Shown here: piece by piece, positions 1,316 through 4,762 of the stretch
Layout of the letters: each line of letters starts with the position of its first letter
Numbering within the stretch: the first letter of the stretch is position 1
DNA from: a virus
IMG/VR virus record: IMGVR_UViG_3300016657_000126
Span: 1 to 24,884 of that record
Reading direction: 5' to 3' (one strand)
Length of the DNA stretch: 24,884 nt
The notes under the pieces: generated by a model
Databases searched by the model: none
The model's input: only the letters and a program-made list of their open reading frames with translations
Told to the model about the DNA's origin: nothing
Position numbers and translations under genes: made by a program

Positions 1316-4300
1316 TTAGAATTTTCCGGTTTCCTTTACTTTCTGACCGAAACCCTCGCCGTAGGCCAGCCTGGGCATCCAGTGCTCGTTCTCCTCGACG
1401 TTCGTGTCGAGGCCGGAGGTAGCGCTCTCCTCAAGGCCCTTTGAGAGGTAGGAAGAATTGAAGCGCACCATCCAGTCGTCGGTGGCGTGCGTCGCGGTGC
1501 GAAGGCGGACCATGTCCGGCGAGAACGGCGGCGGGTTGTCCTGGATCTGCACCTCGTCGATGTCCGCGTTCTTCAGCGTGCTCAGCATGCGCGGCGTGAG
1601 CTTGGTCCCGATGGTGTAGTGCATCGCCGGCGCCGCGAGAAACTTTCCGACCGCATTCTCCGCGGGCGACTTGATCTTGAGGCGCCGCGCGTCCTTCGGC
1701 GGGACATATTTCTGAGCGAGCTTCGAGTAGTAGACTACCTCGTCGGGCAGCTCGTCGACGCCCTGCTCCTCGTCCTGCTGATCGACGACCACGTGGTCGA
1801 GCGCCGCGCGCGCCAGCATCTCAGTGTGGCGTAGATCGGTCTTGGCGCCGCCATCATCCAGCATCTGCTTGAGGCGCTCGGCCAGGTAACGACGACCCTC
1901 GCCGAGCCCGCGAAGGCGCACGATGTCGCGAGGATCCACGAGCCCGTCGGACAGCGCGTCACCCGGCTCGACTTCGTCTCCCTCCTTCACCGCGATCTCC
2001 TGGCCGGGCAGGACGTAGACGGGGTTGCCGTTCACGTGGACGTAGGTGCCGCCCTGCGGCGCCGGCTCGATGCGTGTCACGCGACCTGATTCCTCGGCGA
2101 CGGCCGCGCGGTCCTTGAATACTTCAGGCGCCTGCACCAGCTGGTTCAGATACTCGAAGCCGGTGTATTTCTTGCGCCCCTTCGCCTGGCCGGCGGTGTT
2201 TTTAACGATCAGCCCGTTCTCGAGCACGAAGAGCTGGTCTTTGTGCTTCACGGTAATGTCGAAGCAATGCGCGGGTCCAATGTGCTCGACCGCACGTAAA
2301 GCTGCTGTCGAGTTTTTCTCAGGTTGCCCTGCTTTAGCCAGACGCTGAAGTAGGGCGTTCTTAACACCGGGGATCTTGCCCACGTAGGCAGCGAATCGCG
2401 CGACGTTGTCGATGCCCGCCAGCCCGAACGTAAAGATGTCGTTTTTTCTGTTTTCCTCTCCTGCCGAGCCATGCAGGCGGATCGACTGGCAAACAATACC
2501 AGCTCGAAATTCAATTAAATCGCGGGTGTCCTTCAGCAGTTGAAGTGAGGTGGAGGCAAAGCTGATAGCGGGACACTTTCCACTGATGTAGACGCAACCG
2601 TCCGTAGCCAGGTAGCCGGCCAGAACTGCGCCTACACTGAAATCGTCCCACGAGGTCAAAACCTCCGAAGGAATCCGCTTTTCATGCGCATACTTATTCG
2701 CCAATCCCCAGCGAAGCGCTGCGAGCTTGGCCTTATTCGCCATACCCCCGGCAACGACGCGACCCTTGGCGTCTTTGACGTATTCCGGCTTAATTTGAAC
2801 AATGCGCCAGTCGTGGCTGCGCTTGCTCTTCTTTAGAACCAGATTGTGCGTCACGAGCAGCGCGTTCATGTCGTGGATTTGGGTCTCGTCCGCGCAGGAA
2901 ATCGTGATGTGCGCCGTTCCAGAATTTCGGGCAGTAGCGTGCCTGGTGGTGGTGCTGTTCCAGCGATTACCATCACCCAGGAAAACGCCCAGCAGCAGTG
3001 CCAGAGGTTCATGCGTAGCGTGGCTCCCGTTATGCGGTCCCGGGAGGACTGCGTGATCTTTCGAGACACGCAAATCTCCCGCCTTAACTTTCTTCTGCGA
3101 GCCGGACTGCAGCGAAAGGATCTGGTGCTCGGTAGTGCACTCGACGGTGCGTAGGTTTCTCGAACAGCCCTTCTGGAAGGTATACTTGTAAACGTCCTGA
3201 GTGCCTTGATCCCAGCTCGCCAGAACCTCCACAGGGAAAGTTCGGCCCGCCACGTCGGCGCCAAGGACCAAGTCTCCAGGCTTCACGTCCTCGATCGGCT
3301 TAACGCTGAAATCAGCCATGCGCACGCGCGTGCCTTTTTTGAGGCAGTGCTTCGTGGACAACGCCGCCTGCGTCACGGGCTCGGCGGCGGCATGCGCGGA
3401 GGTGATACCCACCATCTCGCCGATCGGCGGCAGGAAGCCGCGGGCGTCGGCGCCGGCGCAGTGCGCGCAGATACCGTGCTTCGCGCGGCACACGAGGGGG
3501 CTGCGGACGAGAACGCTGCCGACTTTCTTGCGTTCGAGCACAGAGATCGCGTCGCGGTCGAGGATGGTGCCGGCCTCGAGGCCGGCGGTGGCTTTTGCCA
3601 ATACACGGTTCCGGAGTCCGGATCCTACCTCGGCGTCCAGTCCGTCGGTCACCCCGCAGTCGTCTTCCGACACCACCAGGTGCGACGAGGTCTGCGCCCA
3701 CTGTTTGCCGAGGTCGCCGCCCTTGGCCGTGGAGTTCGACACGATGATGCCGTTCGCCAGCACAAACAGGTGATCCGGATGGTCCACCTCAAGGTCGCAG
3801 CAACGCGAGGCGGGTCCGATGCGCTCGTCGGCCAGCGACACCGGCTTGCCGTCCGCGCACATCAGGTAGTCGCGCTTCGCCACGTCACGGAGAGCGACGA
3901 CTTCGTTCGCCGAGTCGCGACCGCCCTCACGGAGGAACTTGTGGTCGCGCGTGCAGTAGACCGTGAGGCGCGTAGTGTTGAGCGGGTCCATTCCGCGTTT
4001 TCGGAACGAGAAAAACACGACCGGCTTGTGACCCTGGTCGAAGTTGTTGAGCACGGTGACCGGAAACGTCGCGCCATTTTTGTCGGCGCCCATCACCTTC
4101 TCACCGACCTCGATGTCCCGGATCTCTTTCACCCGGCCGTCGGCCATGCGGACCTGCGTTCGTTCCCACAGACAGCGCTTCGTTGAGACCACCGAGTGAC
4201 GCGCGCCGTAGCTGCCGGCGAGGTGCTCGTAGGGGCGAAGGCCCTGCGCGAAGCTGTGGCGGATGAAGAGCGGGACCGTGCGCCCCACCGAGTCTTGGTA

Positions 4301-4762
4301 GAGGCCTGGCGTGGTGATCATCGCCTTCAGCTGCGCCGGCTTGCCGCGGGCGCCGGAGGCCACGGAGAAGGCGAGGCCCGTCTGACGCTTCATACTCTCC
4401 TGCATCGTGAGCGGTTCCAGCTCGTCGGAATAACGAAGCCAGATCTGCTCGCGCTTCTGGGCGAACTCCTCCGGGCTCTTCGCAGCCTTCTTTGCCGCGG
4501 CGATCTCGCGGTCCATCGCGGCGAAGATCTTTGGCGTGTCGACAACCGGCTTCATGTCGTCGAGCGAGAGCGTCTCGCCCATCGTGTAGGCGGCGAGGCG
4601 ACCGGCGTCGTTGATGCGCTTCACGACGTCCGAGAACTTGTCGGGGTGGTCGCGCGCGACCTCGACGAGGAGACTCTCCACGCCCTTGGCATCCAGCTTG
4701 ATTTCCCTGTCCCGCATCTCCTTGGGGAGCGCGGCGCGCACGATGAGTTCGATAGCCTTCAC
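1316..4762 (-). CDS. rpoC2-like: DNA-directed RNA polymerase beta-prime subunit, C-terminal half (RpoC2/beta''-like), precursor with two inteins; predicted spliced product 618 aa
   Basis: SGARGK...QL, SFAQGL...SYGAR (F-loop/bridge helix), EDDCG plus RSPLVC-x6-C-x2-C zinc site, GEMVGITSAHAAAEPVTQAALSTKH (trigger helix/loop), VKEGDEVEPGDALSDGLVDPRDIVRLRG, RHTEMLAR. No NADFDGD catalytic motif. GTG start. Confidence 0.95.
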   Translation of the reverse strand: MKAIELIVRAALPKEMRDREIKLDAKGVESLLVEVARDHPDKFSDVVKRINDAGRLAAYTMGETLSLDDMKPVVDTPKIFAAMDREIAAAKKAAKSPEEFAQKREQIWLRYSDELEPLTMQESMKRQTGLAFSVASGARGKPAQLKAMITTPGLYQDSVGRTVPLFIRHSFAQGLRPYEHLAGSYGARHSVVSTKRCLWERTQVRMADGRVKEIRDIEVGEKVMGADKNGATFPVTVLNNFDQGHKPVVFFSFRKRGMDPLNTTRLTVYCTRDHKFLREGGRDSANEVVALRDVAKRDYLMCADGKPVSLADERIGPASRCCDLEVDHPDHLFVLANGIIVSNSTAKGGDLGKQWAQTSSHLVVSEDDCGVTDGLDAEVGSGLRNRVLAKATAGLEAGTILDRDAISVLERKKVGSVLVRSPLVCRAKHGICAHCAGADARGFLPPIGEMVGITSAHAAAEPVTQAALSTKHCLKKGTRVRMADFSVKPIEDVKPGDLVLGADVAGRTFPVEVLASWDQGTQDVYKYTFQKGCSRNLRTVECTTEHQILSLQSGSQKKVKAGDLRVSKDHAVLPGPHNGSHATHEPLALLLGVFLGDGNRWNSTTTRHATARNSGTAHITISCADETQIHDMNALLVTHNLVLKKSKRSHDWRIVQIKPEYVKDAKGRVVAGGMANKAKLAALRWGLANKYAHEKRIPSEVLTSWDDFSVGAVLAGYLATDGCVYISGKCPAISFASTSLQLLKDTRDLIEFRAGIVCQSIRLHGSAGEENRKNDIFTFGLAGIDNVARFAAYVGKIPGVKNALLQRLAKAGQPEKNSTAALRAVEHIGPAHCFDITVKHKDQLFVLENGLIVKNTAGQAKGRKKYTGFEYLNQLVQAPEVFKDRAAVAEESGRVTRIEPAPQGGTYVHVNGNPVYVLPGQEIAVKEGDEVEPGDALSDGLVDPRDIVRLRGLGEGRRYLAERLKQMLDDGGAKTDLRHTEMLARAALDHVVVDQQDEEQGVDELPDEVVYYSKLAQKYVPPKDARRLKIKSPAENAVGKFLAAPAMHYTIGTKLTPRMLSTLKNADIDEVQIQDNPPPFSPDMVRLRTATHATDDWMVRFNSSYLSKGLEESATSGLDTNVEENEHWMPRLAYGEGFGQKVKETGKF
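2198..3346 (-). mobile_element. Intein with LAGLIDADG homing endonuclease (383 aa, aa 473-855) inserted in the RNAP trigger loop
   Basis: Starts CLKKGTRVRMADF, block B TTEH, two LAGLIDADG-type helices (LLGVFLGDG; LAGYLATDG), ends QLFVLENGLIVKN followed by Thr. Removal restores EPVTQAALSTKH|TAG (cf. EPGTQLTMRTFH|IGG). Visibly more AT-rich than the flanks. Confidence 0.94.
3734..4174 (-). mobile_element. Mini-intein (147 aa, aa 197-343) inserted in the RNAP bridge helix
   Basis: Starts CLWERTQVRMADG, block B TRDH, ends HLFVLANGIIVSN followed by Ser. Removal restores GARHSVVSTKR|STAKGGDL, which aligns with bacterial GARKGLADTALKTANSGYL. Too short to hold an endonuclease. Confidence 0.93.

Follow-up and report, generated by a model that had tools for sequence, protein, structure and literature searches.

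Inteins that occupy more than one position of the same gene have been described before. In the Prp8 gene of Anaeramoeba flamelloides, the inteins at site b and site d are related to each other and were published as a potential case of intragenic transfer (PMC10710043). Non-allelic inteins are also found at conserved sites in the second-largest subunits of eukaryotic and viral RNA polymerases (Goodwin et al., 2006, PMC1635734). With respect to the architecture of the element, PI-SceI, the intein of VMA1, and the mini-intein of Mtu RecA both contain a HINT domain, which in PI-SceI is combined with a LAGLIDADG nuclease. Finally, the beta and beta-prime RNA polymerase subunits of phage Arash were detected in virions, in a study that never mentions an intein (PMC10585845). 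Inteins located in the bridge helix or the trigger loop of a phage RNA polymerase did not appear in any paper recovered by our literature search.

The locus described here, a phage gene for the beta-prime subunit carrying two inteins, shares features with each of these systems. The process proposed for the Prp8 inteins corresponds to that suggested in a first-pass annotation of this DNA, where the two inteins were regarded as siblings, one of which had colonised the site of the other. Yet the Prp8 inteins branch together, whereas those of the present gene do not, and they reside in a eukaryotic nuclear gene at sites whose motifs are unlike each other, whereas the two sites in this case look alike. 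As in the second-largest subunits, several sites in highly conserved regions of one RNA polymerase subunit family are occupied, although the former concern a beta-like subunit with a handful of sites over its paralogues and not one family packed into two short catalytic elements. Both window inteins contain the HINT domain found in PI-SceI and the Mtu RecA mini-intein and one of them, like PI-SceI, a LAGLIDADG nuclease, but a Ser or a Lys replaces the penultimate His of both reference proteins. The polymerase of phage Arash is a distant relative of the encoded protein.

The window, a stretch of 24,884 nucleotides, constitutes the first 24.9 kb of an IMG/VR virus record of 196,897 bp. On its minus strand, a single open frame (positions 1316..4762) encodes the C-terminal half of the beta-prime subunit of a bacterial-type RNA polymerase, as assigned from the reading frame, Pfam, solved chains and intein-free homologues, with a precursor of 1148 aa and a spliced product of 618 aa. 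When analysed as a whole, the 1148-aa protein exceeds the Pfam cut-offs for RNA_pol_Rpb1_5 (PF04998; 40.3 bits, cut-off 28.5), for the curated Hint models Hom_end_hint (55.9, cut-off 32.1) and Hint (46.2, cut-off 29.7), and for LAGLIDADG_3. Solved bacterial beta-prime chains align to it in three colinear pieces with E-values down to 9e-26 (HMMER), corresponding to three exteins on the same strand. The N-extein (aa 1-196, 4175..4762) terminates with GARHSVVSTKR in the first half of the bridge helix, whose second half opens the middle extein (aa 344-472, 3347..3733). The latter continues as far as the His of the trigger loop (...AALSTKH), and the C-extein (aa 856-1148, with the stop codon 1316..2197) starts with TAGQAKG directly after this residue. 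In the HMMER alignments to the solved chains, the N-extein stops at ...GARKGLADTA, the start of the bridge helix, and the middle extein at ...MRTFHTG of the trigger loop, with the motifs GAR...TK and ...TKH of the phage protein pairing with GARKGLADTA and MRTFH. Since the alignments end at these motifs, the assignment of the two interruptions to the bridge helix and to the trigger loop right after its conserved His, already made in the first-pass annotation, is correct. A DNA search of GenBank phages with the host gene returned zero matches, and the nearest homologue from a cultured phage is the RNA polymerase of Salmonella phage Arash (OQ632216.1), with 28.5% identity over the C-extein.

Two inserts, each opening with a Cys and closing with an Asn, separate the exteins. 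Intein 1 (aa 197-343, 3734..4174, minus strand) is a mini-intein of 147 aa without endonuclease, which resides in the bridge helix at a position that we number 196 in the alignment of family exteins. It contains Cys1, TRDH in block B, a Ser-Asn end and a Ser at +1, and with its flanks reads STKR|C...VSN|STAKGG. Intein 2 (aa 473-855, 2198..3346, minus strand) comprises 383 aa including a LAGLIDADG homing endonuclease and resides in the trigger loop at site 325, with Cys1, TTEH in block B, a Lys-Asn end and a Thr at +1 (STKH|C...VKN|TAGQ). Its endonuclease insert, whose borders are approximate, spans about aa 571-815 (2318..3052, minus strand) and is recognized by Pfam as LAGLIDADG_3 (34.1 bits against a cut-off of 22.5). 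A motif search located LLLGVFLGDG (2969-2998) and VLAGYLATDG (2597-2626), both on the minus strand and both with their Asp, and the endonuclease appears to be intact. Hom_end_hint and Hint are recognized by Pfam in both inserts. Taken alone, intein 1 scores 35.9 against a Pfam Hint-type model and intein 2 scores 29.0, marginally under the cut-off. Of the 28 family columns conserved at 80% or above, 27 are retained in intein 1 and 26 in intein 2.

Further evidence for their identity comes from the excision of both inserts, which restores a colinear conserved beta-prime protein, and from intein-free homologues of about 612 aa, where STKxATAKGG and KHTAG are read without interruption. Both inserts contain the residues of class 1 inteins, namely Cys1, TxxH in block B, a C-terminal Asn and a Ser or Thr at +1. 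The penultimate His of block G is absent, with a Ser at its place in intein 1 and a Lys in intein 2, as is the case throughout the family, where among 289 inteins 245 end with SN, 17 with KN and 14 with HN. The residue is also missing from some active inteins, and its absence is thus not disqualifying. Judged by these features, we regard both inserts as confirmed genuine inteins of one common family. Because both sit in catalytic moving parts, both would have to be spliced before the enzyme works, a requirement that we infer from their position, with Cys1, the C-terminal Asn and the Ser/Thr at +1 being present in both.

Both inteins are preceded by S-T-K-x, and their empty sites match at 18 of 25 nucleotides, as had been pointed out in the first-pass annotation. 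Only 17 of 179,700 in-frame site pairs of the host gene reach this value (about 1e-4), and among the 2,345 pairs with Ser, Thr or Cys at +1 it is the sole one. In a set of 20 distinct relatives without inteins, the corresponding positions agree at 5-14 of 25 nucleotides, with a mean of 8.2 that equals the background. The likeness of the two sites is thus special to this lineage and not a family-wide property. Only part of the match can be attributed to the Thr-Lys and Lys-His residues, which are conserved and encoded under a strong GC3 bias.

Searches of metagenomic proteins place both inteins in a large family. A word-indexed search with intein 2 identified 28 other proteins, most with the same polymerase domain and about 1000 aa long, the size of an extein plus one intein. 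An exhaustive HMMER search with intein 1 yielded 422 cluster representatives (54 at E of 1e-30 or below), and in 174 of 176 proteins examined the extein is the same polymerase. Small HMMs of the N-terminal and C-terminal blocks served to pair 289 inteins, with one to four per gene, of which 287 could be placed on the extein alignment at positions 181-204 and 312-343. The sites in the bridge helix are 181, 191, 192, 193, 195, 196 (44 members including intein 1) and 204 (49 members) and those in the trigger loop 312, 316, 318, 321 (71 members), 322 (36 members), 325 (20 members including intein 2), 326 and 343, with at least five members at 11 sites and two or three at four others. Sites with more than three members hold mini as well as nuclease-bearing forms, with the exception of site 193, where six of six inteins are full-length. 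Since site 196 shows both forms in other phages, the loss of the nuclease at this position is real. The consensus of the family starts with CL.EGT.VRMAD...G..VLGAD..G.TFPV and ends with D.EVDHPDHLFVLANG..VSN. The start and end shared by the two window inteins are thus those of a large family. In GenBank phages, a protein search with intein 1 gave zero matches and intein 2 found only distant inteins of 20-32% identity in primase/helicase, terminase and other genes. Among solved structures, intein 1 shows very weak matches (E 0.003-0.05, with 1gpp and 3igd being nearest by sequence), and for intein 2 there is nothing at E 0.01.

Alleles that lack these inteins are common. We found 347 intein-free clusters (up to 630 aa), with most of the best 120 listed being about 612 aa long. 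In IMG/VR, 35 of 49 loci are without these inteins and 14 contain one or two, six of them being the same allele, a count that is biased against bridge-helix inteins because one of the two search patterns requires an intact bridge helix. The loci were identified with an alignment of intein-free homologues, whereas a single C-extein as query gave one locus. The +1 position of site 196 is mostly Ala in intein-free alleles. Such occupancy agrees with a homing cycle in which an intein is gained, loses its nuclease and finally disappears, and not with a required control device. The inteins are thus selfish and not needed, and the frequency of intein-free alleles leaves the post-translational control point that had been considered for this gene without support.

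The two window inteins have different relatives. In a comparison of splicing domains based on 111 columns, for which the endonuclease was cut out beforehand and columns 81-112 were dropped because mini and long forms are not comparable in this region, the best matches of intein 2 are inteins at sites 325 and 322 of other phages (58-60% identity), and those of intein 1 are spread over mixed sites (52-59% identity). A maximum likelihood tree of 58 inteins calculated with IQ-TREE groups intein 2 with inteins of sites 322 and 325 and shows intein 1 as sister of the site-196 mini-intein of the metagenomic homologue P0107 (support 97/76), which counters the sister status of the two window inteins that had been put forward. 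The P0107 intein has flanks identical to those of intein 1 and a similar length (144 vs 147 aa), although it is only 43% identical to it overall and its gene has no trigger-loop intein. A comparison to profiles of bridge-helix and trigger-loop inteins assigned intein 1 to neither class. The best full-length BLAST matches of intein 2 are exclusively at sites 322, 325 or 321, and the intein is part of a clade of 25 members that contains trigger-loop inteins exclusively, from sites 321, 322, 325 and 326, with a support of 99 in FastTree and 98 in a quick IQ-TREE tree. Four inteins of this kind (P0156, P0006, P0009 and P0114), located at site 325 or at site 322, three codons upstream, resemble intein 2 in their host gene, in the combination of HINT domain and double-motif LAGLIDADG nuclease and in their clade. 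Their insertion points are at the same codon as that of intein 2 or at a neighbouring one, immediately on either side of the trigger-loop Lys-His, but since these best relatives are only 42-43% identical over their full length, no close donor of intein 2 was sampled.

On a full-length tree of 141 nuclease-bearing inteins (385 columns, FastTree), the label of bridge helix or trigger loop requires only three changes, compared to a mean of 47 upon shuffling, whereas the label of the exact site requires 40, with a minimum of 14. In the quick IQ-TREE tree, subgroups of the trigger-loop clade mix adjacent sites, as in the case of 322 with 326 (support 98), 325 with 326 (99) and 325 with 322 (96). 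An example of such proximity is P0009 (LNAKH|TGG) and P0012 (LN|TKHTGG), which are 53% identical over their full length. Since the element label changes only three times and clades mix neighbouring sites, switches between elements are rare and old and hops over a few codons common. In the course of its history, the family must have changed between non-allelic sites within this gene, and in this respect the proposal of ectopic movement stands for the family, although not for movement between the two inteins of the window. We lean towards the view that the gene family ranks among the densest hot spots observed for inteins, with two deep lineages, one for each element, of which the window inteins would be one ordinary member each. 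Within an element, diversification would mainly proceed from one Ser/Thr codon to a nearby one over distances of 1-4 codons. Precise homing would not account for such hops, and an alternative such as offset cleavage followed by repair that keeps the intervening codons would be required. The inteins at the look-alike sites 196 and 325 show no affinity for each other in a family-level test of cross-homing. Their mean identity of 41.2% is among the lowest of all site pairs, only 192/312, 192/316, 196/312, 196/316 and 316/322 being lower (40.4-41.1%).

The proposal of sibling inteins, where relaxed specificity of the endonuclease would have allowed one intein to be copied between the trigger-loop site and the look-alike bridge-helix site, in either direction, with subsequent loss of the nuclease from the bridge-helix copy, draws on genuine observations. 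The first 81 aa of both inteins are 46% identical (E 1e-17), a resemblance that had initially been recognized without a value, a C-terminal alignment of 101 gapped columns that includes the last ~30 residues shows 33% identity (E 1e-9), the match of the empty sites is rare in the host gene, and site 196 harbours full-length and mini forms in other phages. Against this stands the comparison with the entire family, encompassing 287 inteins from 176 metagenomic homologues, where the two window inteins, being 45% identical on the 111 columns, rank only 171 and 127 of 286 in their mutual similarity. They agree at 44 of 61 family-conserved columns but at only 6 of 50 variable columns, a share (12%) that falls short of the 14-16% median in the family and places them at ranks 214 and 235 of 286. 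Forcing them into one clade lowers the log-likelihood by 32.7 with an AU p-value of 0.029, and a sister relationship is thus rejected by these data, with the p-value being only moderate and the tree of 111 columns poorly resolved. The coding sequences show no synonymous similarity, with a nucleotide identity of 53% over the first 60 codons, a match of 19 of 60 third positions, which is about chance level with synonymous sites being saturated, the same codon in 10 of 30 identical residues and a longest identical run of 9 nt. The GC3 also differs between both inteins, intein 2 belongs to a clade composed of trigger-loop inteins, inteins of sites 196 and 325 form one of the most dissimilar site pairs, and P0107 contains a site-196 intein next to an empty trigger-loop site. 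We thus consider the colonisation of one site by the intein of the other as very improbable, and despite the look-alike sites the present inteins did not cross-home. The likeness of the two inteins is instead that of a family consensus and not of descent within this gene. Even less credible is the maintenance of this likeness by gene conversion between co-resident inteins in a process of concerted evolution. Such inteins are, family-wide, slightly enriched among mutual closest relatives (12.5% in the top 5%), and P0031 carries two mini-inteins that are 69% identical in their core, but in the window the third positions, codon choice and identical runs are so unlike that they argue against any recent copying or conversion, and the residues common to both inteins are those conserved in the family.

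An older event is somewhat easier to envisage, although we still regard it as unlikely. The lineage of intein 1 and its P0107 relative might have originated when an intein of the trigger loop inserted at the look-alike STKx|S/T site of the bridge helix, too long ago to leave a sister signal with the present intein 2. Such a jump would be in line with the presence of several site-321 inteins among the nearest neighbours of intein 1, with the 2-3 switches between elements that the full-length tree requires somewhere in the family, and with the likeness of the two sites being confined to this lineage. However, intein 1 does not group with any trigger-loop clade with support, its only supported partner being a site-196 intein, and mini-inteins offer too few columns to decide the question. 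The sole pair in the FastTree tree that combines sites 196 and 325 (P0092 and P0091) was rejected as a jump between elements, since both inteins are only 34.5% identical and their BLAST neighbours disagree with the grouping, which is probably a long-branch artefact.

We are thus left with a reading that we hold with considerable confidence, where the beta-prime gene of the phage itself would have independently acquired two selfish inteins of one polymerase-specific family, intein 1 being an old resident and intein 2 having arrived later by homing. P0107, the closest homologue of the host gene in the sample (66% extein identity), carries its intein of 144 aa between the same STKR|STAKGG flanks, and its uninterrupted trigger loop reads AALSTKHTAGQA, with the empty site being identical to that of the window. 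GC3 amounts to 0.85-0.89 in the exteins, 0.83 in intein 1 and 0.64-0.70 in intein 2. Because of this difference in GC3 and because P0107 has only the site-196 intein, an old intein 1 and a later intein 2 are the simplest reading. Intein 1 would in this case be a vertically inherited resident common to both genes, whose codon usage has become nearly host-like, and intein 2, whose lineage is confined to trigger-loop sites, most likely the later arrival, probably donated through ordinary homing by another phage that already carried a trigger-loop intein, with a codon usage that still appears foreign. Weaker selection on a selfish insert, instead of a recent arrival, could be part of the reason for the low GC3 of intein 2, and the empty trigger-loop site in P0107 could reflect a loss and not the ancestral state. 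Of the interpretation initially offered for this locus, the single family, the genuine inteins and the look-alike sites are retained, and the sibling relationship is not.

The two inteins of the window are new but ordinary additions to an established class of elements, in a hot spot that is defined at the level of the family. A striking resemblance of two inteins in one gene can thus be a family consensus and not evidence for a jump, and the separate comparison of identity in conserved and variable columns, which exposes such family likeness, is a check that can be reused in other cases. The family constitutes a natural experiment with hundreds of alleles of one essential gene, where empty, mini-intein and nuclease-bearing states are found at many neighbouring codons of two catalytic moving parts. 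It would let specialists test the reach of the 'allelic rule' of homing and shifts of insertion points, and it would allow asking whether splicing in the bridge helix or the trigger loop ever gates an enzyme that in phage Arash is packaged in virions (PMC10585845).

Among the homologues of the interrupted polymerase gene is P0031, a metagenomic beta-prime protein of 1044 amino acids in which sites 204, 312 and 321 of the extein alignment are each occupied by a mini-intein. The mini-inteins at sites 312 and 321 are mutual best hits, with an identity of 69% in their core and 59% over their full length. The pair is the best candidate in our data for real intragenic copying, which, if it took place, would have proceeded without a nuclease in either copy.

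Across the homologues, the trigger-loop sites 321, 322, 325 and 326 harbour closely related nuclease-bearing inteins that are inserted one to four codons apart, with a Ser or Thr always located directly downstream of the insertion point. Examples of related inteins at shifted positions are found in P0009 versus P0012 and in P0113, P0114 and P0121. Such shifts of the insertion point are unexpected and should not occur under precise homing.

The same viral genome probably contains a third polymerase intein, located outside the window on the minus strand (G000:C1:89624-90736, corresponding to L056:2625-3737). This insert of 371 amino acids (CYDADTEV...KVCVSGN, followed by SDQQ) is housed in an ORF of 1005 residues with an RNA_pol_Rpb2_6 domain, corresponding to the beta-like part of the polymerase. 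Its LAGLIDADG_3 score equals exactly the cut-off value, and its intein family was not detected with intein 1, the mini-intein of the bridge helix, as query. Another intein may be present on the minus strand at about G000:C1:111399-112334 (L057:2400-3335), also outside the window, where an insert of about 312 residues starting with CFAGETKV and ending at an approximate C-terminal boundary interrupts a 907-residue ORF containing no Pfam family. The insert shows a weak match to LAGLIDADG_3.

Within the window, the GC content drops to 57.5% at positions 2001-3000, coinciding with intein 2 and its endonuclease, compared to 62–66% in nearly all of the remaining window; four other 1-kb bins show 60–61%.

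At the bridge-helix site 196, P0092 appears to carry two inteins back to back (residues 199-578 and 579-863), with zero extein residues in between, as judged from boundaries extrapolated from HMM matches. The bridge-helix consensus in alignment A1, comprising 52 intein-free homologues, is STKxATAKGG. The +1 residue of this site is Ser in intein-bearing alleles and mostly Ala in the intein-free alleles of A1. An arriving intein must carry its nucleophile in the flanking DNA.
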